This document shows positions 8,603 through 35,079 of a stretch of 43,245 bases of DNA, piece after piece. Where the stretch lies: the IMG/VR virus record IMGVR_UViG_3300043621_000052, positions 1-43,245 of that record; one strand, given 5' to 3'. Positions within the stretch are counted from its first letter, which is position 1; each line of letters opens with the position of its first letter. The notes beneath the pieces were generated by a model that searched no databases, was not told the origin of the DNA, and saw only the letters and a program-made list of their open reading frames with translations. The position numbers and the translations under genes are program-made. Origin of the DNA: a virus. Its lineage: Duplodnaviria > Caudoviricetes.

Positions 8603-9120
8603 TCCTCGACGACGCTCGAGGCGTGCTCCTCCAGATACGCCAGCGCCGCCGCCTCGATCGCAGGCCATGTGTCGGGCGGGCACTCTGTCAGGCGAGGGAA
8701 CCCGCCGTGTTCGCGCAGGAGGTCGACAACGCCGGCCGTGGATTTGGGGTGGATCGCGTTGACCTGTTTCAGGACCGCACGCAAATCCGCCTCCAGGGGA
8801 ATTTGCGGCGCCGCCTTCGCGGGAGCGGCCGGGGGCGCTGCCGCCTTTGTTATTGGCGCCGGCTTCGGCGCGGCCTTCTTCGCCGCCGGGGGTGGCGTTG
8901 GCGGAGGCGCGGGTGGAGGAGCCGGCGGCGGCGGCGGTGGCTCTGGGGCTGGCGCGGGCTCGCCACCGATGCCGATCGACTCGTCGATCGTCTGGACGAT
9001 CGCGGCCGTGGCCTGGCTGGCGGCGACCATCTGGCGCCGCATCAACAGCATGTTGGCGATGTCTTCCTGGGACACCTCGACATCAAATGTCATGTTTACA
9101 TGGATGTTGGTCGTTTTCAT
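8599..9120 (-). CDS. Pro/Ala-rich linker protein typical upstream of DUF2800 genes (173 aa)
   Basis: The ATG overlaps the helicase TAA. A Pro-rich linker precedes a small helical C-domain (LLREHGGFPRLTECPP). Confidence 0.75.
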   Translation of the reverse strand: MKTTNIHVNMTFDVEVSQEDIANMLLMRRQMVAASQATAAIVQTIDESIGIGGEPAPAPEPPPPPPAPPPAPPPTPPPAAKKAAPKPAPITKAAAPPAAPAKAAPQIPLEADLRAVLKQVNAIHPKSTAGVVDLLREHGGFPRLTECPPDTWPAIEAAALAYLEEHASSVVEE

Positions 9121-10457
9121 TAGGCTGCGTCTCCCATGATCTCTTGAACCACTACGCGTTTTCTTCTGAGGACTTCGGCGACACGCGCGTCTATGCTGTT
9201 CGATACCGTGAGTATCGAGGCGTGTACGGATCTGGACTGACCCGCGCGATAGAGCCTCGCCACGGCCTGGTCGTAGGCGGCGGGCGTCCATTCCGTCTCA
9301 AGGAAGATGCAACGCCGCCCCGCCTGCAAGTTCAGCCCGAACCCGGCGAGCTTCACCGAGGCGATGAGCAATCGTGACGTTCCGGCGGTGAAAGCGTCGA
9401 TTTGACTCTGTCTGGTTTGTAACGGAGTGTCGCCAATCATTAAAAGTGGAGTCTGCGACTCGCACTTTCGCGCGACGTATTTAAGGGCGTCGATATGGAG
9501 GCCAAACAGGACGATGCGATCGGCGCCACCGTTAAGCTCTTGCATGACCAGCTGCGCGGCGGCCTCGGCCTTGGCCAGCGCCATCAGCCGGCGGGTGCTG
9601 GCCAACGGCAACAACATGGCGTTCAACCGTTGCCACGCCGCATCGATCCCACCTTCGATTTGTGTCAGGACAACGTGAAGGTCCCGCCGCATCGTGTCGG
9701 GAATTGAGGCCTCAATGGCCCCGCGGTCTTTTTTATCAATGGTGACAGATATCGTGTCGGCTATCAGCGGCGGCAGATCCGTGACATCATCCAGTTTCAC
9801 GCGTGACGAACAGGCGCGCAGGATCTCGCCGAGCTCTCGGAGGTTCCGTCCGCCGACGACCACGTCGCCGAATGTCTTTCGGACAAGGACGCAGAACCTA
9901 CCAAGGAAATCCTGTTTCCGGGTCAGGTCTGGAATGAGATGCGGAAACAACCGGGACAGGTGCGGATGAAGCTCGTCGGGACTATTCATGATAGGAGTCC
10001 CCGTCGCGATCCATACACGATCGCAACGACGGAACAGCGCGCCTCGGCTGTCATCGCGCGCACCGTAGAACGCCTGGGTGCGCATGCTGGTGGAGTGCGC
10101 CAGGGCGTGCCCCTCGTCGCAAACGCAACTATCCCAGTGCGCGGCGTAGAGTTGCCGCCAGACCGGCAGGCGCCGCATGAAGTCGTAAGAGCAGAGGACG
10201 AGGTCCACGTCATCGCGCACACGCTCGCGGCCGTTGCGGATGATCTGGACCGTGGCGCCTGGGCGCCAGCGTTGGATCTCGGCGGCGGCCTGCTCCAGCA
10301 GCACGGCCGGCGAGAGCCACAGACCGCGACCACCGACGGCGGCGCCGGCCAGGATCAACGCGGCCGTCTTGCCGGTGCCCATTTCCCACAGCAACAGGAA
10401 GTGTCCGATCACGAGGTCGGAGAGCACGTCCCGCTGATGACGCCATGGCTTCGGCAT
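9120..10457 (-). CDS. SNF2-family (SF2) helicase
   Basis: Motifs EMGTGKT, CDEGH, ATGTPIMN, GFGLNLQ and QAVARLYRAGQ. Confidence 0.93.
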   Translation of the reverse strand: MPKPWRHQRDVLSDLVIGHFLLLWEMGTGKTAALILAGAAVGGRGLWLSPAVLLEQAAAEIQRWRPGATVQIIRNGRERVRDDVDLVLCSYDFMRRLPVWRQLYAAHWDSCVCDEGHALAHSTSMRTQAFYGARDDSRGALFRRCDRVWIATGTPIMNSPDELHPHLSRLFPHLIPDLTRKQDFLGRFCVLVRKTFGDVVVGGRNLRELGEILRACSSRVKLDDVTDLPPLIADTISVTIDKKDRGAIEASIPDTMRRDLHVVLTQIEGGIDAAWQRLNAMLLPLASTRRLMALAKAEAAAQLVMQELNGGADRIVLFGLHIDALKYVARKCESQTPLLMIGDTPLQTRQSQIDAFTAGTSRLLIASVKLAGFGLNLQAGRRCIFLETEWTPAAYDQAVARLYRAGQSRSVHASILTVSNSIDARVAEVLRRKRVVVQEIMGDAA

Positions 10458-10685
10458 TCACCACGCGTCCTCTTCAAAGGGGACGGGAACCGGCTTGAGG
10501 AACTTGCCCTCTTTCAGCAGTTTCTCGACAGTGGCGCGGAGCACGAGGATGCGGTGCGACACGCGAACGGCGGGGATGATCCCCGAGTGGATGTGCGCGT
10601 AACAGGTCCGAGCCGGCAGGCCCAGGATATGGGCCGCCTGCGCCACCGTGACCGTCCTGGGTGTTGGTTTCTGAGCTCCCGGCAT
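10458..10685 (-). CDS. Excisionase-like/Cro-like HTH protein (75 aa)
   Basis: TVAQAAHILGLPARTCYAHIHSGIIPAVRVSHRILV; first gene of the leftward operon, divergent from the repressor. Confidence 0.85.
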   Translation of the reverse strand: MPGAQKPTPRTVTVAQAAHILGLPARTCYAHIHSGIIPAVRVSHRILVLRATVEKLLKEGKFLKPVPVPFEEDAW

Positions 10686-10908
10686 TCGGGGAGCCTGCGC
10701 GTATTGCAACCGTTGCACCAGCCCAAATCGTCTTCAATCCGCTCGCTTTGTATTGTTTGCAATGGCGAGCGGATTATTCTTGTCCGGCGCGAACCAAATC
10801 AGCTACCGAGCGTTTGCAACGGTTGCGGGCTTTCGTCGGGTAGCGGACGGAACCGGGGCGGGGGTTTTGGCTACGAATGGAATGAAATGGAACAGGAAAG
10901 GTTGGGGC
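10686..10908. promoter_or_regulatory. Divergent control region with operators at 10705-10717 and 10815-10827
   Basis: TGCAACCGTTGCA and TGCAACGGTTGCG lie between divergent HTH genes in lower-GC sequence. Confidence 0.7.
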
Positions 10909-11423: not shown

Positions 11424-11852
11424 GTGACGCGACCAACCAAGGCCTACACCGACGAGGAGCGTGAGCTCCTCCTCCGCGCCGCGCGCGGCCACTGGGCCGG
11501 CGGCGCCGTCCGGTGGATGCTCACCACCGGCTGCTCCCGCGCCGAGGTCTGCGCCCTGACGTGGGCCGGCATCGCCGGGTTGGCGACAGATCATCCGCTC
11601 CACGACGAGATAAAGGCCAGACGCGGCCGGGCCACGGCCGAGGCCCGCGCGACCGGTCGCGTGCTCGATCGTCAGCCCGTGTTCCCCGGTTTCTACGGCC
11701 AAAGGCTGAAGACCGACGCGTTCAGGAACACGCTGCGCCTGCTGCTCCACAATCAGCGGCGCAAAGAAGAGTCGGCGAGACACAGGCGAGAAGCGGAGGA
11801 CAGACCAGATGGCAAGGTATACGCACGAGAACACGCCAGGGCTGACGGATGA
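11424..11852 (+). CDS. Truncated, catalytically degenerate tyrosine-recombinase-like protein
   Basis: MLTTGCSRAEVCALTWAGI resembles box I (TGxRxxExxxLxW) with Arg replaced by Ser. VFPGFYGQRL patch present; no HxLR or catalytic Tyr region. Confidence 0.6.
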   Translation: MTRPTKAYTDEERELLLRAARGHWAGGAVRWMLTTGCSRAEVCALTWAGIAGLATDHPLHDEIKARRGRATAEARATGRVLDRQPVFPGFYGQRLKTDAFRNTLRLLLHNQRRKEESARHRREAEDRPDGKVYAREHARADG

Positions 11853-12039
11853 CGCCCTGGCGTCGCTGAACGAAAGATACGAAGCGGCGTCGAAGCGGGT
11901 GGACGCCGCCACCCAGGTCGACCCCGGTTTCTGGGACCGGCTGGCGACCGTGATCCTCGACGACTTCACGACGCAGCGGAAAGTGGCCGAGGCGATGACA
12001 ACGTATCAGGCGAAGGGGAACCGCGAGGATCTGGCATGA
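11809..12039 (+). CDS. Small protein (76 aa) ending in a capsid-identical peptide
   Basis: SD ggagga. The C-terminal TTYQAKGNREDLA equals major capsid residues 9-21. Confidence 0.8.
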   Translation: MARYTHENTPGLTDDALASLNERYEAASKRVDAATQVDPGFWDRLATVILDDFTTQRKVAEAMTTYQAKGNREDLA

Positions 12040-12290
12040 GCCCCCCGGAAGGGCAGGAGGCACTGGAGGCGCTGGCCGAGCAGGCTCTGGCGGACCTGTT
12101 CGCGTATATGATCCGCGAGGACCATGACCCAGACCACAGTGCCCCCGAGGACGCGGCGCTGGACTACGCGGCGGAGATCGTTTCCGCCGCCATCGCCCTT
12201 TTCCATCAACGAATATCGCCGTGTGGTCTGCCGCCCAACGTCATATCCGTCGCCCTGCTCCCGACCCCCGCTAACGAGGACCTCGCCTGA
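12036..12290 (+). CDS. Hypothetical protein (84 aa)
   Basis: ATGA and TGATG coupling at both ends. Confidence 0.7.
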   Translation: MSPPEGQEALEALAEQALADLFAYMIREDHDPDHSAPEDAALDYAAEIVSAAIALFHQRISPCGLPPNVISVALLPTPANEDLA

Positions 12291-14728
12291 TGGCGGCGAG
12301 CACGGCGAAGGCCGGTGTGGGTGGCGCCGACGGCCCGCCCAAACCCGTTACCGATGAGCGCGCCCGCGGCACGGCGCTGGCGGACATCCCCGCGCTGGCG
12401 TGGCTGCTGGAGCAGAAGCGTTTCTGTGTGTGGGACTGGCAGCTAAAGGGGCGGAAGGACCAACCAAAGTGGACCAAGCCGCCCAGGATACCCGGTACGC
12501 CGATCGGCCAGAGGGTCAACGATCCATCAACGTGTGTGTCATATGAGGTGGCGCGTGGGGCGGTCCTGGCCGGGGACGGCGAGGGCGTGGGCTGGGTCCT
12601 GCTGGACGAACTCAACGTGGTGTGGCTTGACGCGGACAAGTGTCGCGACCCGGTGACCGGCGAGCTCGCGCCATGGGCTCAGGCGCTGCTTGAAATGGCC
12701 GGGGGCGCCTACCACGAGCTCACGCCCAGTGGGACGGGGCTACGCATCGCCGGGGGCGCCGGCATGTTCCTGGCGTTCCAGGGCAGGCTCGACATGCGGG
12801 CGTTTTTAGGTGGGTTGGACGAGGCGGATCTCGCGCGCTGGGGCGGCAGCCGAGACTGCGCCGAGGGCGCGGCGGTGGAGATATTTTACGGCTGCGCGCG
12901 GTATGTGACGATGACCGGCTGGCAGGCGGCGGGGAGCATCGATGCCGACATCGGCCGCCTCGCGATCGCCCTCTGGGAGGCCGGGGACGCGCAAGGGATC
13001 GTGACCCGGTCAGTGCGCGCCGCCGGGCTGGCGCGGGCGGAGGTGACGGCGGATCGCACCGGGCCGATCGAGGACATCGTGTCGGCTCTGGGAGTGATGG
13101 AGAACGACGAGCTACATTGGGACGATTGGAACACGATCGGCCTGGCCGCGCATGCCGCCAGCGGTGGTGACGCCGACGCGTTCGAAGCGTTCAGGGCATG
13201 GTCGGAGCAGTCGGCGAAGCACGATGATGTCTACTGCGCGGAGCAGTGGGAGAAGTGGGGCCGATCGCCCGCGACGCGATCGGGCATAGGCACGCTGACA
13301 TGGCATGCGCAGCAGGCTGATCCAGGCTGGATCAGACCGTCGAAGCGGGGCGGGCTGGAGTTCGATCTGGTGGAGGTCGAAGAGGGAGAGCCGGGAAAGC
13401 CGTGCAAGGCTGACGCCGCCGGGGGCGCGGCCGCCTTCGCGGATCTGGTCGCGCGGTTTCGTTACGTGAGGTCGCCACGAGGCTGGCTCGACCGGGACGG
13501 TGTGCTGCTCGACGATCAGCAGCTGGCCGCCGAGGCCGGGGGGATGGGTGTGGCCGGCTTCATGGGGCGCGGCGCCAAGGGGCTGACGGCGCGCATGCTG
13601 CACCCGCGAAGCAGGCTCAGGCGCTGCGTGGGCCTGACGATGCGGCCAGGGCAGGGAGAGGTCGTCCACGAGCCATGGGGGCCGTGCGCGAACCTCTGGC
13701 GGCCGTCGGATCTGGCGCCTCGTGCGGGCGCCACCGAGGCCGACGCGGCGCCGTGGCTGGAGCACGCGCGCAGGCTGATACCCAATGACGCCGACAGGGA
13801 GCGTGTGCTCGATCGCTTCGCGTGGATACTTCAGAACCCAGGCCGCAAGATCAACAGCGCCCTTGTGTTGTTGGGGCCGCAAGGCGCCGGCAAGGACACG
13901 CTGCTGCTGCCGGTGCTGGAGGCGATAGGGCAACACAACGTCGGCGAAGTGTCCGGTTCGAACATCGGCGGGTCGTTCAACGGCTACCTCCGCAACCAGA
14001 TGCTGCTGATCAATGAGATGCCGCCGGCACACAAACGGGACAGCTACGAGTCGATCAAGGGGTGGATGACCACGCCGCCGGGGCGTGTGCCCATCAATCT
14101 CAAGGGGGTCGAGGCGTTCTCGGTGCCGAACGTCATCAACGCCGCCATCACATCCAATCACATCGGCGCCATCGCCCTGGCGGAGGACGACCGGCGTTTC
14201 GACATCGTCGCCACGATCATCGCCGCGTTGTCGGGCGATCCATACTGGGCGCGCCTGCACCGGTGGCTGGACGGGGGCGGGCACGCGATCGTCGCCGGCT
14301 ACCTGATGGCGCGCGATGTCTCGGCGTTCAACGCATCGGCCGCGCCACCCATGACGGAGGCCAAGCGGACCATGATGCGCGAGGGCGCGCATCCGGCCGT
14401 GGCGTGGGTCATGTCGCTCTTTGACGAGGGCAGGCCGCTGGCGGAGCGGGACGTGGTCACGGTGGGGGAGATCGTCGGCAAGGGTCAGGCCGGCAAGTGG
14501 GAGGCGAGCGGCGGCGTGTCCCACAGTCTGACGTGGGCGCATGTGCTCCAAGGTCTGCGGCAGCACGGCTGGCGTGTCCTGCCGCAGCAGATCGTCGACG
14601 GCGAAGACAAGCCGAGGCCGTGGGCACGCGCCGGGTCAGTCACGCTGTTGTCCCAACTCACGGCTACGGCTTTGCGTGAGCATTTGCAGAAGGATCGAGG
14701 CAAGAACAGCGGGTTTGACTTCGGGTGA
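12290..14728 (+). CDS. Primase-helicase: AEP prim-pol, PriCT-2, and D5/SF3-like (DUF5906-type) helicase
   Basis: Motifs WLDADKC, ELTPSGTGLR, RYVTMTG, WNTIGLA...WSEQSAKH, Walker A GPQGAGKD, LINE and DDRRF. Confidence 0.92.
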   Translation: MAASTAKAGVGGADGPPKPVTDERARGTALADIPALAWLLEQKRFCVWDWQLKGRKDQPKWTKPPRIPGTPIGQRVNDPSTCVSYEVARGAVLAGDGEGVGWVLLDELNVVWLDADKCRDPVTGELAPWAQALLEMAGGAYHELTPSGTGLRIAGGAGMFLAFQGRLDMRAFLGGLDEADLARWGGSRDCAEGAAVEIFYGCARYVTMTGWQAAGSIDADIGRLAIALWEAGDAQGIVTRSVRAAGLARAEVTADRTGPIEDIVSALGVMENDELHWDDWNTIGLAAHAASGGDADAFEAFRAWSEQSAKHDDVYCAEQWEKWGRSPATRSGIGTLTWHAQQADPGWIRPSKRGGLEFDLVEVEEGEPGKPCKADAAGGAAAFADLVARFRYVRSPRGWLDRDGVLLDDQQLAAEAGGMGVAGFMGRGAKGLTARMLHPRSRLRRCVGLTMRPGQGEVVHEPWGPCANLWRPSDLAPRAGATEADAAPWLEHARRLIPNDADRERVLDRFAWILQNPGRKINSALVLLGPQGAGKDTLLLPVLEAIGQHNVGEVSGSNIGGSFNGYLRNQMLLINEMPPAHKRDSYESIKGWMTTPPGRVPINLKGVEAFSVPNVINAAITSNHIGAIALAEDDRRFDIVATIIAALSGDPYWARLHRWLDGGGHAIVAGYLMARDVSAFNASAAPPMTEAKRTMMREGAHPAVAWVMSLFDEGRPLAERDVVTVGEIVGKGQAGKWEASGGVSHSLTWAHVLQGLRQHGWRVLPQQIVDGEDKPRPWARAGSVTLLSQLTATALREHLQKDRGKNSGFDFG

Positions 14729-18642: not shown

Positions 18643-18960
18643 ATGGCTAAATCAGGCCCTGCCGCCGTGTCACGCGGCGCACGCATCGAGAAGAAGGTAA
18701 ACGCCGCGCTCATCGCCGCCGGGTGCGCGGGCTACACCGCCCGGTTCATCGAGTCCGATGACGAGATGGACGACAGCGTCTCCATTCTGCTGCACGGGGA
18801 AGAGAGCTCGTGGAACCTGCAACTCGGTCCCGATTACTGCGGCGTCAACGAGTATGGCTACAAGGACGGTTTCATCGACTGGATGCGGGACCACGGTCTT
18901 TATCGTTCGCAGGCAGCCGCCGTCGCCAAATTGTGCGCGCTGCTGCGCCCCTCCGCCTGA
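18643..18960 (+). CDS. Hypothetical protein (105 aa)
   Basis: SD gagga; ATG at 18643. Confidence 0.8.
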   Translation: MAKSGPAAVSRGARIEKKVNAALIAAGCAGYTARFIESDDEMDDSVSILLHGEESSWNLQLGPDYCGVNEYGYKDGFIDWMRDHGLYRSQAAAVAKLCALLRPSA

Positions 18961-19003
18961 CCCAACCCACGAGCGGCCCCGATTGGCGGGGCCGTCGAAG
19001 GAG
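18961..19003 (+). repeat. Bulged hairpin + SD leader, copy 2
   Basis: CCCAACCCA-CGA[G]CGGCCCCG-attgg-CGGGGCCGTCG-AAGGAG. Confidence 0.8.
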
Positions 19004-19011
19004 TAAATCCC

Positions 19012-19251
19012 ATGGCTAAATACTACGCTGACCTGAACCCCCTTTTCCCCTCCAACGGCGCGAAGAAGTGGGCCGTTTTCTTTCGCGGGGAGGAGAAAAA
19101 CTCCGCCGTGCGCATCGGCGGATTTGAGTTCGTAACCCGCCGCGCCGCCGAGAACAACGCCGCTCGCATGAACGCCAACATGCGGCGACAGGCTGCTTTC
19201 GAGCAGCTGCTGAACGACCCGAACTGGGTTGGCTCGCGCCACCACTACTGA
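19012..19251 (+). CDS. Hypothetical protein (79 aa)
   Basis: Strong SD aaggag. Confidence 0.8.
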   Translation: MAKYYADLNPLFPSNGAKKWAVFFRGEEKNSAVRIGGFEFVTRRAAENNAARMNANMRRQAAFEQLLNDPNWVGSRHHY

Positions 19252-19252
19252 T

Positions 19253-19294
19253 CCCAACCACGAGCGGCGCCCCGAGGGGGTGCCGTCGAAGGAG
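19253..19294 (+). repeat. Bulged hairpin + SD leader, copy 3
   Basis: CCCAACCA-CGA[G]CGGCGCCCC-gag-GGGGTGCCGTCG-AAGGAG. Confidence 0.8.
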
Positions 19295-20882: not shown

Positions 20883-23477
20883 TTGGCCCGGCGGGCTCGC
20901 AAACAGGACGCGATGGACGATGAGGAGATCCTCGCGGTTCTGCGCGCCTACCGCGAGGACGCGGCGTCATACGCCGACGACACGCTGGCCCCCGATCGTG
21001 AACGCGCTTTCGTGTATTACGAAGGACTCGTGCTTAACGACGACAATACTCCCGAACAACGCGACCCTGGTCGGTCAGGAACGGTCGTTCGTGAAGTAGC
21101 CGACATCATCCACACCATGCTGCCCGGCATCATCCGGGTTTTCGCTGGTGGAGACAAGGTTGTTGACTACGAACCACGCAATCAGGAGGACGAGGAAGCG
21201 GCCAGACAGGCCACCGACTACGTCCAGTATCTGTTGAACGCGGACGGGAATAACTGGTTCTGTACTTTATACGATAGCGTCCACGATGCCTTGCTGAAGA
21301 AGATAGGCGTCATCAAGTGGTGGTTTGATGAGAGCAATTCTGTCGAGGAGTTCGATTATACTGGTTTGACGCTCCTCCAGTTCTTGCAACTTAGCAACGA
21401 TCCCGAGATCGAGGTGCTGGAGCAATCAACCCAGGCCGACGACACCGAGGCGCCGGCTGCTTCACCCCCGACCCCTTCGCCAGCGCCGGCCGTTCCTTCC
21501 GAGCAGCCAGGCGAAGCAGAGCCCCCGGCGGGTCAGGCCCCACCGATCCCGCCGGGTGGCTCGCCTCAACCACCCACACCACCGATCGCGCCTCCCGAGC
21601 AGCCAGCTGCCGGCATGGGTGCGACGGCGCCGCCGGGCGGAGATGTAGCGTCCACGCAACCGGCGGCGCCGCCCATGCCCCCTCAACTCCCCGGCATGTT
21701 CGACACGGGACCGCAGCCGTTGATCGACTGCACCGTGCGCCGCACCCGCCAGAAACGCGTCCTGCGTGTCGCGGCCGTGCCCCCGGAAGAGTTCCTGATT
21801 GCCCGCGACGCCAGATCCGTCCTGACCAGCCGCTACACCGCGCACCGGACCATGCCCACCGTCTCCGATCTGGTGGAGCGTGGTTACGACCGCGAGATGG
21901 TCGAGGAGCACGCCTCCCCCGACGCGGAAGCCCGCAACACCACGAGCCAGACCGAGGCCCGGCAGCGCAACCCCGGTCTGCGGGAAGGTGATGTCGACGG
22001 TGGCCCCGACATCAGCACCTGGCGCGTGCCACACACCGAGGCCTGGGTGCGTCTCGACGTGGATGGCGACGGCATTGCTGAATTGCATCACATTTGCACG
22101 GTCGGCGAAAGCCAGGAAGAGATCGCCGTCGACGAGATCGACTACGACGCGCCGTTTGCCCTCTTATCCGCTGTCCGCCTGCCGCACGCGGCGATCGGCT
22201 ACTCGATCGCGGACCAGACGATCGACTTGCAGGACATCAAGACCTCAGTCCTCCGCAGCATCCTTGATAGTTTAGCACAATCCATCTTCCCGCGCACGGC
22301 TGTTGTTGAGAACGCGGTCACGATGGACGACGTCCTCAATAACGAGGTCGGCGCGATCATCCGCATGCAGGCACCGGGAATGGTGCAGGCCCTGTCTGAA
22401 CCTTTCATCGGTCAGCAGGCGCTGGGCGTGATGAATTACCTTGATGAGATGCGCGCGCAGCGCACCGGCATTTCGCGTCAGTCACAAGGCCTCGACGCCA
22501 ACGTCCTACAGTCAACCACGAAATCCGCTGTCTCCGCCTCGGTCGAAGCGCAGCAGGACCGCGTCGAGCTGATCGCGCGCACGTTCGCCGAAATTGGCGT
22601 GAAAGACGTTTTCCGGGGCCTGCTGCGGTTCGTGATCCGGCACCAGGACAAGCCGCGCGTCGTTCGCCTCCGCAACCAATGGGTCAACGTCGATCCGCGT
22701 TTCTGGGACGCGGAGATGGACGTGTCGGTGAACGTCGGACTGGGGCGCGGCACCGACGAAACGCGCATGGCGTTCCTGGCCACGATTGGACAAAAGCAAG
22801 AACAGGTCTTGCAGATGCTGGGGCCAGACAACGCCCTCGTGTCGATCGGGCAACTACGCGAAACCTACGCCGAGATGCTCAGGATCGCGGGCTTCAAAAA
22901 CCCAGACAGGTTCTTCAAGGTCGTTACGCCAAACCAAGAGCAAATGCTGAGCCAGCAGATGGCGCAGAACAAACCGCCGGATCCGAACCAGCTCCTGGCC
23001 CAGGTCGAAGGCGAGAAGACCAAGGCGAAATTCCAGACCGACCAGAGCCAGCTTCAATACGATGTGGCAAAGGCCAAATCCGACGATGATTTCCGCCGCG
23101 ACCAGCTCGACGCGGATGTGCTCCTTCGCGCCGCCGAGATCGCCGCCAAGTACGGCACCCAGATCGATATTCAATCGATCCAGGCCGCGCTGGAGCGTGA
23201 CCGGACGGCGATGGCGCAGGCGCATGAGCTGCAAATGTCCCGTGAACAGCAGCAGGCCGCTGAACTGAGCCAGGGCGCGGCGCGGGCCGCCCAGGAGCGC
23301 ATCCAAAACGCGAGCCTCGGCGCGAACCGCGACATCGCGACCCAGCGCGCGAACACGCAGATCCGTACCGGGTTGATCCGCGAGGCGCTGCGCGCGCCGC
23401 CGATCGGCGCGGGCATCAACGGTGCGGCACCCCCCGGCGGCGGTAACGGTGCCGCCGCGCCGGATGGAGGCCTCTGA
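20883..23477 (+). CDS. Portal protein with a Pro-rich insertion
   Basis: Motifs RERAFVYYEG, DEEAARQATDYVQY, VPPEEFLI, DLQDIKTSVLRSILD and ELIARTFAE; position between terL and scaffold; TTG start with SD gggag. Confidence 0.92.
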   Translation: MARRARKQDAMDDEEILAVLRAYREDAASYADDTLAPDRERAFVYYEGLVLNDDNTPEQRDPGRSGTVVREVADIIHTMLPGIIRVFAGGDKVVDYEPRNQEDEEAARQATDYVQYLLNADGNNWFCTLYDSVHDALLKKIGVIKWWFDESNSVEEFDYTGLTLLQFLQLSNDPEIEVLEQSTQADDTEAPAASPPTPSPAPAVPSEQPGEAEPPAGQAPPIPPGGSPQPPTPPIAPPEQPAAGMGATAPPGGDVASTQPAAPPMPPQLPGMFDTGPQPLIDCTVRRTRQKRVLRVAAVPPEEFLIARDARSVLTSRYTAHRTMPTVSDLVERGYDREMVEEHASPDAEARNTTSQTEARQRNPGLREGDVDGGPDISTWRVPHTEAWVRLDVDGDGIAELHHICTVGESQEEIAVDEIDYDAPFALLSAVRLPHAAIGYSIADQTIDLQDIKTSVLRSILDSLAQSIFPRTAVVENAVTMDDVLNNEVGAIIRMQAPGMVQALSEPFIGQQALGVMNYLDEMRAQRTGISRQSQGLDANVLQSTTKSAVSASVEAQQDRVELIARTFAEIGVKDVFRGLLRFVIRHQDKPRVVRLRNQWVNVDPRFWDAEMDVSVNVGLGRGTDETRMAFLATIGQKQEQVLQMLGPDNALVSIGQLRETYAEMLRIAGFKNPDRFFKVVTPNQEQMLSQQMAQNKPPDPNQLLAQVEGEKTKAKFQTDQSQLQYDVAKAKSDDDFRRDQLDADVLLRAAEIAAKYGTQIDIQSIQAALERDRTAMAQAHELQMSREQQQAAELSQGAARAAQERIQNASLGANRDIATQRANTQIRTGLIREALRAPPIGAGINGAAPPGGGNGAAAPDGGL

Positions 23478-24709
23478 TGGCTGACCCCGGCCTCCTCTAT
23501 CCCGACGACGAGCAGCTCCCGCCCTGGCTGCGGCAGGATCCCCGGGCGGCGGCGCTGCTGGCGACGCTCCAGGGCGGCGGCAATCAGCCCGCCGCGCCGA
23601 TCTGGAACCCTAATAACCCCGTCGGCACCGAGACGCTGCAATCGATGGGCATGCCGAAGCCGACGCTCCAGGCGGGCCTCCTCGGTGAATACATCAATCC
23701 GGCGACGGGCCAGATGACGGAGAAGGGCCGCGAGCGGATGAACAACCCGGCGCTGGGTCTCGATACGGGAGGACTGGGCGGCGCGATCAAGGCGTATCAC
23801 GGCTCGCCGCACAGCTTCGACGCGTTCGACGCGAGCAAGATCGGCACGGGCGAGGGCGCGCAGGCTTACGGGCACGGGATGTATTTCGCTGAGAACGAGG
23901 GCGTGGCGCGGGGTTATCGGGACCAACTCTCCCAGGACACCCGGCTGCTCTATCAAGGCAACAAGGTTGGTTACACTCGGAACGAAACGCCCGCCCAGGC
24001 AGCGGTTCGTAACGCGGGCGATTATATGATGACCCGCGACGTGACAGCGGAAGAGGCGCTGAAACGGGTCCAGCGTGATTTTGCTTTGGCCGCGCGCGAT
24101 CCGGGGCGAAAGAACGCCGACCACATGCAGGCCGTCTCCGATGCCGTAAGCGGCATTGATCCGTCTCACCTAAGTATTGAGCGCGGCGGCCACATGTATG
24201 AGGTCAACCTCAAGGCCGACCCGGAGCATTTCCTCGATTGGGACCGGCCGCTGAGTGAGCAGCATCCGAAGGTGCGGGAGGCGGTGCGCTCCACGTTGCG
24301 ACAATTCGCGGATCAACCCGAACCGTTTCCGGGTGTGCGTGCGGTTGAACAGAGATTACTGAGCGCCATCGATACGCCTGAGAACGTCAGTTCCGCGAGT
24401 GCACTGAAGGGGTATGACGCTTACCAGCATCTTGCCCGTCGATTGGCGGGAGCGAGCAATGGTCGATGGAACCCACAAGACGCCGTTGGTTCTGCTGCCG
24501 CTCTCCGCGAAGCAGGCATCCCCGGCATTCGCTACCTCGACCAGGGCAGCCGAGGCGCGGGCGAGGGATCGCGCAACTACGTCGCGTTCGATCCCGCGAC
24601 GATCGAAATCCTCCGCAAATACGGCCTCGCCGGTCTACTCGGCGGTGGTGCGGCGGCAGCTGCCGCGCCGGGCGACGCCCAGGCCGCGCCAGCAGGGCTG
24701 ATCCCATGA
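23477..24709 (+). CDS. Putative ADP-ribosyltransferase-fold protein (ART-PolyVal-like), probable virion cargo
   Basis: AYHGSPHSFDAFD...GEGAQAYGHGMYFAE...ARGY, MYEVNL and GIPGIRYLD...NYVAFD. Confidence 0.7.
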   Translation: MADPGLLYPDDEQLPPWLRQDPRAAALLATLQGGGNQPAAPIWNPNNPVGTETLQSMGMPKPTLQAGLLGEYINPATGQMTEKGRERMNNPALGLDTGGLGGAIKAYHGSPHSFDAFDASKIGTGEGAQAYGHGMYFAENEGVARGYRDQLSQDTRLLYQGNKVGYTRNETPAQAAVRNAGDYMMTRDVTAEEALKRVQRDFALAARDPGRKNADHMQAVSDAVSGIDPSHLSIERGGHMYEVNLKADPEHFLDWDRPLSEQHPKVREAVRSTLRQFADQPEPFPGVRAVEQRLLSAIDTPENVSSASALKGYDAYQHLARRLAGASNGRWNPQDAVGSAAALREAGIPGIRYLDQGSRGAGEGSRNYVAFDPATIEILRKYGLAGLLGGGAAAAAAPGDAQAAPAGLIP

Positions 24710-26412: not shown

Positions 26413-26711
26413 CGCTCCACCCCCGCGACCCCTCCGTCGCCCTGCGTGAGGCCTCCGAGGCCGCCGTCGCGGCCCAGGCCACGCTGGAAGATCCCGGCCT
26501 GCGGGCGGCGTTCTCCCGCCTCCAGGGTCATTACGCGCAGCAAATGAGACGTCTCCCGCCCGAGGACAAAGACGGCCGGGAGGGGGCTTACCTCATGCTC
26601 CGCGCGCTCGATGCGCTGGCGACCGATCTGGCCCAGGCGATCAGCGGCGCGGAGATCGCGAAACATAACCACCGTTCTGTTCTCAGATCGGTCGGGAGTA
26701 ACAACAAATGA
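26409..26711 (+). CDS. Small head-associated protein preceding the scaffold (100 aa)
   Basis: ATGA coupling at both ends; REGAYLMLRALD motif; synteny. Confidence 0.75.
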   Translation: MTLHPRDPSVALREASEAAVAAQATLEDPGLRAAFSRLQGHYAQQMRRLPPEDKDGREGAYLMLRALDALATDLAQAISGAEIAKHNHRSVLRSVGSNNK

Positions 26712-27808
26712 GTGGCACGGCACAACAGGGCACCCCCGCGCCTGCGGATGCGGGATCCTCGTTGCAAAAGGCGGCGGCATCGATCGAGCAAATCCTGGAC
26801 CGTGAAAACGGCAACCCAGAAGCCCCTCGGCAGGCCCCCGTGCCACGGCGCGCACCGTCTCGGACGGAAGCAGACGCGTCGTCGCCTGACGCTGAAACGG
26901 AGCCACGCGAGACGCTGTCCGACGCGGAGACTGACGGAGAGGTCGACGACCTTTACGAGCAGCCCGATGCCGAGGAAGATGGTTCCGAAGAGGCAACTGA
27001 GGCCGAGGAGCAAGAGACCGACGACGAGCCCGTCCCCCGGTCGTTCACCGTCAAAATCGACGGCAAGGACGTGAAGGTTACGGAGCCGGAACTGGTCAAC
27101 GGCTACCTGCGGCAGCAGGATTACACCCGCAAGACGATGGCGCTTGCTGAGAATGACAAACAGTTTCGCGGCTACGTCGCGGCTGTCCAGTCTCACGAGC
27201 AGGAATTGCGGACGGAGCGAGCCCAATACGCTGAACTTCTACCGGTGCTCTCGGAACAATTGGCGGCACTCAAGGGACAAATCGGCGAGCCCGATCCCCA
27301 GCTGCTGAACACCGACCCGGTTGAGTACATGCGGCAACGCGCGGTCTTTGATGACATCCAGAAACGAGAGATGGCGGCGGCGCAGGAGATGCAGCGCCTC
27401 CAGCATGTTTCGTTAGAGGAACAGCAGAAGCAGCGCGCGGCGTTGTTGATCAAGGAGCGGGAGCTGGTCAAACAGCGTGTCCCGGCCTGGGCCGACGACG
27501 CACGGTGGAAACAGGTGACCCAGACAGCCCGCGCCTACGCGGAGGAGCTGGGCTACACCGAGGCGGAAATCCGCGAGGTGCTTGATCACAGGGCCGTGAT
27601 GGTCCTGTGGCAGGCCGCGCGCTACGCCAGCATGGCCAAGCAGGGGATCCCGGTCGCTAACCGCCCCCGGCAGCAGACAGCCACTCCACCGGATCCAGGG
27701 CCAGCTCCAACGCGCCGACGGTTGTCGGTGCATAATCAGAACAAACAGCGTCTCGCGAAATCGCACAGCGTCGCCGATGCGGCGTCTGTCATCCGTGGTC
27801 TCCTGTGA
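26708..27808 (+). CDS. Capsid scaffolding protein
   Basis: Acidic N-terminus, FTVKIDGKDVKVTEPELVNGYLRQQDYTRKT and a coiled coil; directly upstream of the capsid gene. Confidence 0.9.
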   Translation: MSGTAQQGTPAPADAGSSLQKAAASIEQILDRENGNPEAPRQAPVPRRAPSRTEADASSPDAETEPRETLSDAETDGEVDDLYEQPDAEEDGSEEATEAEEQETDDEPVPRSFTVKIDGKDVKVTEPELVNGYLRQQDYTRKTMALAENDKQFRGYVAAVQSHEQELRTERAQYAELLPVLSEQLAALKGQIGEPDPQLLNTDPVEYMRQRAVFDDIQKREMAAAQEMQRLQHVSLEEQQKQRAALLIKERELVKQRVPAWADDARWKQVTQTARAYAEELGYTEAEIREVLDHRAVMVLWQAARYASMAKQGIPVANRPRQQTATPPDPGPAPTRRRLSVHNQNKQRLAKSHSVADAASVIRGLL

Positions 27809-27820
27809 TGGAGCGAGAGA

Positions 27821-29434
27821 ATGCCCAAAGTTACAAACGCCTTCACCACTTATCAGGCGAAAGGCAACCGCGAAGATCTGGCTGATGCCATCTTCAACAT
27901 TGACCCGGTAGACACGATCTTTCTTTCCATGTCTGAAACAAGATCCATTTCGAATGTGATGTTCGATTGGCAGACCGAGAAGTTGCCGACGATCAACGCC
28001 GGGAACGCCCAGGTCGAGGGCTTCACACTGGTGCGTGGTCCGTCGACGCCGACCATTCGCATCGGCAACGTCGCGCAGATCAGTGAGCGCGACGCGACCG
28101 TTTCGGGCACGCAAGAGCACGCCGACGCGGCGGGCAAATCCGGCGAGATGAGCCACCAGATGGCGCTCGCTGGCAAAGCCCTGAAGCGTGACATGGAAAC
28201 CATCCTGCTGGGTGTGCAGCCCTATAACGCGGGTGCTGACGACACCACCGGACGCACCACGCGCGGTCTGGAACATTGGCTGACGACAAACGCCTTCTAT
28301 GGCGCGACCGGGGCAAATCCCGTGTCGGCGACGACAGCTGTCACCGATGGCACGCCGCGCGCGTTCACCGAGGCACTGCTCGGCGACGCGATCCAGGCAA
28401 CCTACGACAAGGGCGGAGAGCCGGATCACCTGTTGATGGGGTCTTACATCAAACGCGTGTTCTCGACCTTCCTCGGCCGCAGCCAGAGCCGTGTCGCGAT
28501 TGACAAGGACGAGATCAACGCGGCGGCGGATTTCTACCTGTCCGACTTCGGCGAGCTGAAGGCCTACCCGTCGCGCTACATCCGGCCGCGCACGGTGATC
28601 GGCTGGGATCCCGATTTCACCAAAGTGGCCTACTACCGGAAGATGGAGAAGGTCGACATCGCCAAGATCGGCGACGCCGACACGAAAATGATCTTGTCCG
28701 AGTATGGGTTACAGGTCAGCAACGAAGCCGCGCATTTCAAAATCGCCGACCTGATCACCAGCGGGGCGATCACCCTGGCGGGGACCACGACGCAGACGAC
28801 CGACCGGGTCATTGGCGGTGTACACGGCACGGCGGTGTCTGGTGAGACGGAAGCCTACAACGCCGACGGCAGTCCGAAGATGCCGCCAGCGAACCGCCAG
28901 CAGCCGTTCGATGCCGGTGGCACGCCGATGTATGCCGGGCCTTACGGCGGGCAGGGCAACATCAACCCGATGATGGGTGGGGCGCTCGACGAGCGTGGCC
29001 GCCTGCGGACCGACGTGCCGGTGCCTTACGACGCGTCCGGTGCGGTCAACCAGGATGGCACGGTCCTCGCCTCGCCGGGTTCCCTGAGCCCGGTGACGTT
29101 CCCAGGCCAGAACCCCGGCGCGGAACGGGATCCGCCACCGCCCCCGGCCAGCCCCAAGCCCGCCACGCCCCCGGCGGCGACGGGGGAACAAGGCTCCAGC
29201 CCTGGCACGCTGTTGGTGACCTCTGCTCAGGGGAACCCGTCAGAGGTGACGGCGAAGACACCGGCCGGGACCAAGGGCTCGATCGTTTGGGGCGACGCGA
29301 CCCCCGATGACCAACCCAAGAATGGCCTCGTCGGGGTGAAACACACCTACGAAACGCCCGGCGACTACACCGTGCGCCTCGTCGATGAGGGCGGCGTCCT
29401 TATCGCCTCGGCGTCGGTTCACGTTCCGGTCTAA
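27821..29434 (+). CDS. Major capsid protein (SU10/DUF5309-like) with a C-terminal linker and PKD-like domain
   Basis: Motifs GNREDLADAIFNIDP, NVAQI, KALKRDME and AKIGDAD...ADL at ~aa 311; then WGD...HTYETPGDYTVRL. Confidence 0.92.
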   Translation: MPKVTNAFTTYQAKGNREDLADAIFNIDPVDTIFLSMSETRSISNVMFDWQTEKLPTINAGNAQVEGFTLVRGPSTPTIRIGNVAQISERDATVSGTQEHADAAGKSGEMSHQMALAGKALKRDMETILLGVQPYNAGADDTTGRTTRGLEHWLTTNAFYGATGANPVSATTAVTDGTPRAFTEALLGDAIQATYDKGGEPDHLLMGSYIKRVFSTFLGRSQSRVAIDKDEINAAADFYLSDFGELKAYPSRYIRPRTVIGWDPDFTKVAYYRKMEKVDIAKIGDADTKMILSEYGLQVSNEAAHFKIADLITSGAITLAGTTTQTTDRVIGGVHGTAVSGETEAYNADGSPKMPPANRQQPFDAGGTPMYAGPYGGQGNINPMMGGALDERGRLRTDVPVPYDASGAVNQDGTVLASPGSLSPVTFPGQNPGAERDPPPPPASPKPATPPAATGEQGSSPGTLLVTSAQGNPSEVTAKTPAGTKGSIVWGDATPDDQPKNGLVGVKHTYETPGDYTVRLVDEGGVLIASASVHVPV

Positions 29435-29473: not shown

Positions 29474-29773
29474 ATGTCGTTTCGTATCCTTCATTCCGCC
29501 AGCGGCGGTGTGGTCCGCTGGGTCTCCTCCACCCCCGGCAACGATCAGGTGGTCGTCCATGACGAGCAGGAGGTCGGCGACCTCCTGCGCGCCAACGCCC
29601 GCGACGCTGATGTCGATCAGACCGGCCAGCATTTCCGGCTGGTGGCGCGCGTGCCGATGTCGATCATGAACAAGGCGATCCAGGAGGGCTGGTCGCGCGA
29701 CAAAGAGAAGTGGCGCGAGTGGCTCAACAACTCTGATAATAGAGCCTTCAGAGTTTGGCCAGGAAAAGTGTGA
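29474..29773 (+). CDS. Conserved small head-region protein (99 aa)
   Basis: FRLVARVP...WLNNSDNRAFRVWPGKV; usual position after this capsid type. Confidence 0.8.
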   Translation: MSFRILHSASGGVVRWVSSTPGNDQVVVHDEQEVGDLLRANARDADVDQTGQHFRLVARVPMSIMNKAIQEGWSRDKEKWREWLNNSDNRAFRVWPGKV

Positions 29774-30222
29774 TGCCAGCAAAACAGGACATCGCGCTAC
29801 GCTTCTTCGATAAGGTTTCTCCAGAGCCAAACAGCGGCTGCTGGCTGTGGGACAGCGCCGTAAACAATAAGGGCTACGGTCTGATCTTTAATTCTGACCC
29901 TGATAAAGAGCGTCAGGCGCATCGAGTATCGTGGCGGTTGCATCGCGGTGAAATCCCCACCGGGATGTGCGTGCTGCACCGCTGCGATGTGCCTTTGTGT
30001 GTAAACCAAAATCATCTGTTCCTTGGCACGATGAAAGATAACACACAGGATATGATTAAAAAGGGCCGCGCTAAGGGTGGCCCGATAAAGCATTCAAACG
30101 AGTTGGTGCGCGAGATCAAGCAGAGCGAAGGCACATACACCGAGATCGCCAAACGCGTCGGCATCGATATGTCTTACGTTCGCAAGATTAAACTCGGTCA
30201 GTACCGGGCGGGGGTCACGTAG
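29773..30222 (+). CDS. Free-standing HNH homing endonuclease
   Basis: Motifs GCWLW, AHRVSW and VLHRCDVPLCVNQNHLFLGT; C-terminal HTH; lower GC. Confidence 0.92.
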   Translation: MPAKQDIALRFFDKVSPEPNSGCWLWDSAVNNKGYGLIFNSDPDKERQAHRVSWRLHRGEIPTGMCVLHRCDVPLCVNQNHLFLGTMKDNTQDMIKKGRAKGGPIKHSNELVREIKQSEGTYTEIAKRVGIDMSYVRKIKLGQYRAGVT

Positions 30223-34521: not shown

Positions 34522-35079
34522 ATGCCTTTTGTCTCAGGTTTCTTAAAGGTTCGCCATCCCGGCGACCGCGTCGACAACAGCCTCCCCGGAGGCGAGAACC
34601 CCGTTGATCCCGGTTACGGGATCGGCGAAGGTCGTCCAGACAATAGCTTGCCGGGCGGCGGCTACATCGACAATACTTTGCCGCCGCCTCCGGGGATCTG
34701 GCCGCCGCCGGTCGGCATCTGGCCGCCGACGCCGCTGCCGCCAAACTACCCGATGCCCCCCGGCAGCATCTGGCCGTCACCGGGTGTTCCGACGCATCCG
34801 ATCGCGCCGGGCGGCTCGCCGGGGACGCCAGACAACTCGCTGCCACGGCCTCCCGGACGGCCCGATAACTCGTTGCCTCGCCCGCCGGGGACACCAGACA
34901 ACACGTTGCCGGGAGGTGGCGAACGCCCCGACAACTCGTTGCCATCTCAGAAGTATCTGGTGGCGATTGTCGGTGTATCTTCGAGCGGCGGCCTCAAGGT
35001 GGTTGGCTATACGGTTGTCGATCCGTCGCTTTCGCCGGGTCAGTTGCCGGTGATGCCGCCGACCGCACAGCCAAAGTAA
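34522..35079 (+). CDS. Proline-rich repeat protein (7 x DN[S/T]LP)
   Basis: SD aaggag; repeats visible in the translation. Confidence 0.8.
   Translation: MPFVSGFLKVRHPGDRVDNSLPGGENPVDPGYGIGEGRPDNSLPGGGYIDNTLPPPPGIWPPPVGIWPPTPLPPNYPMPPGSIWPSPGVPTHPIAPGGSPGTPDNSLPRPPGRPDNSLPRPPGTPDNTLPGGGERPDNSLPSQKYLVAIVGVSSSGGLKVVGYTVVDPSLSPGQLPVMPPTAQPK

Follow-up and report, generated by a model that had tools for sequence, protein, structure and literature searches.

The capsid targeting sequence (CTS) of bacteriophage T4 is an N-terminal tag that is removed by the prohead protease, and we take it to be the first ten residues of the T4 internal proteins. It is a conserved sequence with which these proteins are carried into the scaffolding core (PMC3012670). 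Another small T4 protein, gp61.1 (54 aa, annotated as hypothetical), matches residues 57-93 of the T4 capsid protein gp23 in our comparison (17 of 37 residues identical, E 6e-9), and its gene lies directly upstream of the primase gene (loci L115:1167-1331, L116:446-2011 and L117:3417-4416). No description of gp61.1 function was found in the full-text literature searched. By eye, its first ten residues resemble the starts of IPII and IPIII as well as gp23 residues 56-65; perhaps the targeting tag of T4 is a capsid self-copy as well. In the procapsid of P22, the N-terminal arm (N-arm) of the capsid protein is an alpha-helix, residues D14, E15 and E18 of which bind R293 and K296 in the C-terminal helix-loop-helix of the scaffold (PMC9965877). 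Likewise the scaffold tip of 80alpha contacts an N-arm helix, and CpmB of SaPI1 is a small protein that competes at this scaffold-capsid interface (PMC5644958). Hosts also sense capsid proteins, which trigger the CapRel SJ46 and staphylococcal Thoeris defences, and in one screen oligomerisation was the common need of capsid triggers (PMC13728456); the capsid treated in PMC13730344 is unrelated to the one described below. For self-copies of capsid arms on early phage proteins we found no description in the full-text literature, with subscription papers mostly outside its scope.

The DNA stretch analysed here (the window, 43,245 nt) is the record of a complete phage of 43 kb that has direct terminal repeats and 65% G+C, and it encodes portal, terminase, scaffold and capsid. 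A leftward replication arm carries helicase, exonuclease, methylase, SSB and family A polymerase genes, and a rightward run consists of an HTH regulator, an integrase-like fragment, a 76-aa gene, an 84-aa gene and the primase gene, after which comes an SU10-type head module with portal, scaffold and major capsid protein (MCP). The 76-aa gene (11809-12039, plus strand), which lies among these replication genes, has GGAGG upstream and a gene-like GC3 of 0.83, and its product is composed of a predicted two-helix carrier domain (residues 1 to ~57) and a tail (residues 58-76; 11980-12036, plus strand) that copies MCP residues 3-21 with 16 of 19 residues identical (E 5.7e-9, BLASTP-short within the genome). 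The last 13 residues, TTYQAKGNREDLA, are exact and are encoded both at 11998-12036 and at 27845-27883, the latter being MCP residues 9-21. In a six-frame self-comparison this match was the longest exact peptide repeat, the 127-base terminal repeat aside, with a runner-up of 10 aa. The original prediction had reported an exact 13-aa match with six synonymous DNA changes, and retranslation bore this out with the bases exactly as first listed: 6 of 39 bases differ, all at synonymous third positions, and the neutral probability that six of six changes in the tail are synonymous is 1.9e-4. The ribosome-binding site (GAGGA) and the ATGA stop/start overlap of the next gene (12024-12039, plus strand) lie inside the last codons of the tail, and the caveat had been raised that two of the six changes also create this SD and ATGA. 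This does not account for the match, because in the eight tail codons upstream of the ribosome-binding site all four changes are synonymous as well (p 0.002). The orthologues in L001 and G004 have a GTGA overlap and use other codons at the tail end, with the peptide unchanged. Judged from these sequences, the 76-aa protein is a real, selected, accessory capsid-arm mimic on a small-protein family that has not been described.

The 76-aa protein matched no PHROGs family, and its Pfam matches were only weak and far under their cut-offs; searches with seven family members gave no PHROGs family at E below 0.03. It is not a member of the SU10 MCP family: it has no PF17236 match, its model consists of two helices, and no more than 19 of its residues come from the capsid. 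The AlphaFold2 model has helices at residues 14-29 and 41-75 with a mean pLDDT of 90.6, dropping to 61 over residues 71-76, and the tail and the body are thus predicted to form one helix. Foldseek comparison of this model with viral structures returned nothing at E up to 0.001, the ESM Atlas held no usable match for P0001 or P0014, and the promoter scan gave nothing above chance (1 site against 0.5 expected).

To distinguish selection on the peptide from a property of the DNA, codons can be compared for the four tails with available DNA (the window, L001, L002 and G004). Over 19 codons of tail and own MCP gene, the window phage (G000) has 8 identical, 8 synonymous and 3 non-synonymous codons and G004 has 6, 11 and 2, and for both tails the own capsid gene is no better a match than the capsid genes of other phages. 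The window tail has 12-13 identical codons in common with L001 and L002. Between the window and G004, the 13 tail codons comprise 3 identical, 9 synonymous and 1 non-synonymous, and the 51 body codons 12, 9 and 30, respectively. With no preference of the tail codons for the own MCP gene, selection acts on the peptide, and these comparisons make gene conversion, recent duplication and RNA pairing unlikely. The earlier claim of peptide selection rather than recent duplication is further upheld by in-frame tails with the same end residue in the orthologues. A chimeric assembly, which had been named as a possible flaw, left no sign: the gene order around the 76-aa gene is kept in L001, L002 and G004, which excludes it, and tail-bearing orthologues are present in unrelated assemblies. 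At least half of the words in this region were present in two sequencing runs, both of soil metagenomes, and one of the two may be the source; a contig from run X1, possibly the window's own source, covers the tail region without differences, and a 151-base contig from run X4 spans the tail and stop with zero differences from the window. The identity of 33 of 39 bases is the one point in favour of a DNA- or RNA-level feature (recent duplication, gene conversion or antisense pairing) or an assembly artefact; the first is largely refuted by the codon matches and the second is countered by the independent assemblies, and we give this explanation almost no probability. Phage contigs in X1 (record 6) and X2 (record 14) align with the window over the tail end only (11962-12040) and have F in place of M; they are further tail-bearing relatives, one in the possible source sample.

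The 76-aa protein has a family of orthologues. A single-sequence search yielded one orthologue, an exhaustive search against representatives yielded seven matches with five true members, and a profile search yielded 51 proteins, 49 of which (the two weakest omitted) were aligned with four cluster members to give 53 rows. Thirteen of these, from nine clusters at 90% identity, close with A[KR]GNREDLA and a stop, so that the tag is C-terminal and has the same final residue in every carrier, corresponding to MCP residue 21. The other 40 members have AFxxY followed by a variable charged end, referred to here as a decayed tail, and are merely 40% identical over positions 70-76. In a set of ten orthologues, 535 of 585 pairwise positions agree over the last 13 residues (91.5%) and 972 of 2194 over the body (44.3%); the best 13-column window of the body reaches 54%, and residues 58-63 reach 66%. 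T4 CTS proteins are characterised by a short tag that is conserved while the rest of the protein varies, and the same is seen here, with 91.5% in the tail versus 44.3% in the body. Shorter relatives stop at about residue 58 or run into unrelated sequence, which marks the carrier as a ~57-residue domain to which an extension was added. The domain also occurs as the front part of a fusion with a ~180-aa protein, on a viral contig of 59 kb (L105:1501-2043).

The first motif scan gave 14 stretches, of which one held a true tail (G004), six had the motif in unrelated frames and seven were free of the motif on translation; in all, two DNA pattern scans of viral contigs, an insensitive method, gave this one true tail. 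A word-based search of residues 37-76 against proteins of 41-133 aa, also insensitive, gave four matches, namely three family members and one capsid fragment. A 101-aa capsid fragment, P0058, has an arm that matches the window tail at 18 of 19 positions, including the M at which the window's own capsid differs. Cultured phage records contained no orthologue of the 76-aa protein, and plasmids contained no match for P0053. In GTDB genomes the scan met a single locus, the capsid gene of a Luteibacter contig; it met no carrier and therefore points to no host. In a Luteibacter contig an SU10-type capsid gene has an in-frame TAG within its arm codons (L085:10001-10075).

In a tree built without the tail, the 13 tail carriers lie on one side of a 100/99 branch. 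The two clades have AFxxY, the first half of the extension, in common, and the earliest-branching members with decayed tails retain a trace of KG..ED, which suggests one old capture and later decay in phages with a changed capsid. When the tree was rooted with four short outgroups, it gave supports of 81/43 for the tail clade and 93.5/94 for the decayed-tail clade, and the question of gain or loss, that is, old capture and decay or completion of a chance half-match, is not settled by the rooted tree. The latter bears on the proposal that the tail is a relic, in which recombination at a chance half-match joined a piece of the capsid gene to the C-terminal helix of the family, where it was kept for no other reason than to complete this helix and to provide the next gene's ribosome-binding site. 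The overlap of the last tail codons with the SD and start of the next gene, the TGATG at the corresponding place of the capsid gene and the conservation of AFxxY in both clades fit with such an origin. On the other hand, G-N-R and L-A are invariant in 13 of 13 tails with varying codons, the 40 other members do without these residues and vary freely there, and the synonymous excess extends upstream of the SD; a relic is accordingly an improbable account of the tail.

The tail was compared with the capsids of the phages that carry it. A matching arm is present in both tail carriers whose capsid is visible (the window phage G000 and G004) and in none of the seven decayed-tail carriers of which this is true. 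One of the seven, G007, has a phrog_334 capsid; the others (G008, G009 and G011-G014) have SU10-type capsids with a different arm. A search of five records with phrog_334 gave no match, with the controls also silent. When the decayed tails of G007, G008 and G009 were compared with proteins of their own phage, nothing beyond chance was found among the top matches listed. At residue level the G004 tail has L where its own capsid has Q, and the window tail has M where its own capsid has F, and both of these tail residues, L and M, occur in capsids of other phages. The invariant residues of the tail are the invariant capsid residues A13, G15, E18, D19 and L20, and the tail variants V/I, T/S and Q/L are variants seen among capsids. 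Hence the proposed co-variation of the tail with the cognate capsid stands for modules (2/2 versus 0/7) but not for single residues (L/Q and M/F mismatches), and the link between modules may represent one or two events because the seven decayed-tail carriers are related. Among the five complete genomes with the arm (G000, G001, G004, G005 and G010), two have the tail; G001 keeps a deletion remnant, and G005 and G010 are without a copy. With three of five complete genomes tail-less, the tail is optional and dispensable. In G001 (L044:18400-19300, minus strand) the start and a middle piece of the 76-aa gene survive, fused to the cysteine-rich next gene, and the tail is gone.

The original of the copy is the N-arm (residues 1-21; 27821-27883, plus strand) of the SU10-type MCP (537 aa; 27821-29434, plus strand), which passes PF17236 with 273.5 bits against a cut-off of 24.1 (E 3e-81) and has the PDB relatives 9NY2 and SU10 7Z45. 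Residues A13, G15, E18, D19 and L20 are invariant among 25 related capsids. The C-terminal extension of this MCP has ~220 residues with a PKD-like domain at its end (residues 470-536), and the extension length varies among relatives. The head scaffolding gene (26708-27808; phrog_3927, E 9e-55) lies upstream and encodes a conserved basic C-terminal tip (27680-27808, plus strand), in which D41 and A42 are invariant and R22, R32 and L33 nearly so among 20 aligned tips of 50 residues. By analogy with P22 and 80alpha, the arm would be helical in the procapsid and bind the scaffold, and the tip would be its partner. We consider the tail to be a selected copy of the capsid N-arm that most likely binds this basic tip, with a probability of roughly 40%, and rank such docking above the decoy reading that the original prediction placed first. 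The conserved basic tip of the scaffold and the helical tail in the AlphaFold2 model support docking, as do the conservation of the tail as a peptide, its sharing of the invariant capsid residues, the module-level link to the capsid and the T4 precedent of gp61.1. Several observations count against it: the tails of G004 and the window do not track their own capsid exactly, the tail is dispensable, the module-level link may come from one or two events, the copy ends at A21, short of the rest of the likely arm helix (DAIFN), and the pLDDT is low over the last six residues. AFxxY (matching MCP A7, F8 and Y11) is kept in nearly all 53 members, including phages whose capsid lacks AFxxY, and this points to a possible partner other than the own scaffold, or to a structural role. 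In P22 the P-domain residue R101 also contacts the scaffold (PMC9965877), and the peptide alone may for this reason bind the scaffold weakly. An AlphaFold2 model of the MCP, built on 25 sequences, had a mean pLDDT of 43.8, too low to locate the arm. Prediction of the complex of capsid residues 1-318, scaffold tip and 76-aa protein scored 0.00 in two runs against a mark of 0.32, where the controls did not fold either, and so speaks neither for nor against docking.

If docking on the scaffold is the function of the tail, the 76-aa protein would be made ahead of the head genes, wait for scaffold and then dock on it. The docked protein would ride into the procapsid as a passenger, like the T4 internal proteins, and at a high level it would divert scaffold from capsid subunits, whether these belong to the phage itself or to a co-infecting relative whose arm is the same. 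Since the two-helix body is conserved where the tail has decayed, it probably serves a purpose of its own. The arm has a second contact in the mature shell: in P22 it becomes a loop that projects into the adjacent subunit (PMC9965877). The tail could thus be imagined as a cap that fills the capsid-subunit groove for the neighbour's arm and stalls shells of co-infecting relatives or premature subunits, and a motif common to many related phages would suit this purpose. But the contact of arm and groove forms at maturation, once the shell is closed, and an inhibitor that binds stably would act on the phage's own capsid too, given its identical arm, making such a cap quite unlikely.

Sensing of the capsid by the host offers a different partner. 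A small early protein could block a sensor of this kind: DSAD1 is a competitor of structural triggers, and Lit is activated by the Gol peptide of the T4 capsid. To our knowledge, such inhibitors are not sequence copies of the trigger, and we know of no sensor of the SU10-type arm. In the decoy reading, an early monomeric copy would occupy a host capsid sensor without triggering it, before real capsid accumulates. The 76-aa gene is a small accessory gene in the early/replication region with a patchy distribution, as looked for in an anti-defence decoy, the copied stretch has the conservation across many related capsids that would be expected of a sensed pattern, and the tails match the family-wide motif rather than their own capsid exactly. 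These early, patchy and family-wide features fit a decoy equally well as scaffold docking. Against it, no sensor for the SU10-type capsid arm was found in the literature searched, and an exact copy of the trigger could equally activate the sensor. We hold a decoy to be doubtful, though less so than the cap or the relic, and see in it the main rival of docking.

Docking on the scaffold, the preferred reading, can be compared with the described systems. As in P22 gp5/gp8 and the 80alpha capsid and scaffolding proteins, the copied segment is an N-arm with invariant acidic E18-D19 and the scaffold tip is basic, whereas the arms of P22 and 80alpha belong to the capsid protein itself and the scaffold contact for SU10-type capsids is drawn by analogy, the available part of PMC9509320 being without mention of scaffold. 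Similar to the internal proteins IPI-III of T4, a short conserved tag is present on non-structural, diverse proteins, but the CTS is N-terminal and cleaved, while the 76-aa tag is C-terminal in 13 of 13 carriers and was seen on one carrier family in the insensitive searches made; a prohead protease was not found among the 54 window ORFs scanned. The likeness to gp61.1 lies in a small gene just upstream of primase that copies the front part of the phage's own MCP; in L001 and L002 the 76-aa gene is the direct primase neighbour, with one gene in between in the window phage and G004. The gp61.1 copy, however, sits at the N-terminus, has diverged and extends across the region of protease cleavage, whereas the 76-aa copy is C-terminal, near-exact and on a separate two-helix carrier. 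Nor is the 76-aa protein a gp61.1 orthologue: tblastn against 50,697 phage records returned no T4-like record at E up to 10. It is not a member of the CTS or gp61.1 families and would at most work like them. CpmB is encoded by a satellite, imitates the scaffold side and targets the helper phage, in contrast to the 76-aa protein, which is encoded by a phage and copies the capsid side; with a window that is a complete phage, this is not a redirector of the CpmB type. The 76-aa protein may be seen as a variant of mimicry at the capsid-scaffold interface.

A selected capsid-arm copy on a protein of the replication region reveals an interaction with a use beyond the shell itself. Binding to the scaffold would make the tail a packaging tag or an assembly brake in podophages that seemingly lack a prohead protease, and cargo could then be brought into heads with a short C-terminal tag. 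With a host sensor as the partner, a new logic of counter-defence would emerge with the sensed epitope named: phages might disarm capsid-sensing immunity through an early harmless copy of the sensed peptide on a small carrier helix, a tentative idea that we rate as unlikely. In this event the copied segment would indicate the epitope that some undiscovered sensor reads on SU10-type capsids, and a survey of self-copies, including T4 gp61.1, would map the parts of capsids that bacteria recognise. The question is directly testable even though the window phage is uncultured, because gp61.1 has a comparable design in a model phage.

Directly upstream of the 76-aa gene is the integrase-like fragment (142 aa; 11424-11852, plus strand; phrog_1, E 5e-5 over residues 5-50), which belongs to the conserved gene order and has the same position in G001, G004, L001 and L002; a full integrase was not found among the window ORFs scanned. 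An excisionase-like HTH (10458-10718) and a repressor-like HTH gene adjoin this fragment. Downstream, the 84-aa accessory gene (12036-12290, plus strand) separates the 76-aa gene from the primase-helicase gene (12290-14728, plus strand); it has no family match and ends in NEDLA and a stop with a duplicate ribosome-binding region. It is missing from L001 and L002, where primase directly follows the 76-aa orthologue, and of its last 18 bases 15 agree with the end of that orthologue in L001, as though insertion of the 84-aa gene had duplicated the ribosome-binding region. A capsid-like match on the plus strand inside 8669-9139 (E 0.007) was rejected as an antisense shadow of a real minus-strand gene. 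Elsewhere in the window, a polyvalent-protein ADP-ribosyltransferase domain (PF18760, just over the cut-off) is encoded by a gene at 23477-24709, behind the portal gene, an HNH endonuclease gene lies in the head module (29755-30222), and a short tandem repeat (34814-34943) lies within the ORF at 34522-35079. After the terminase gene there are two 47-base elements (18957-19003 and 19248-19294) that are 82% identical and have small ORFs behind them, each consisting of a G+C-rich inverted repeat followed by AAGGAG and ATG.
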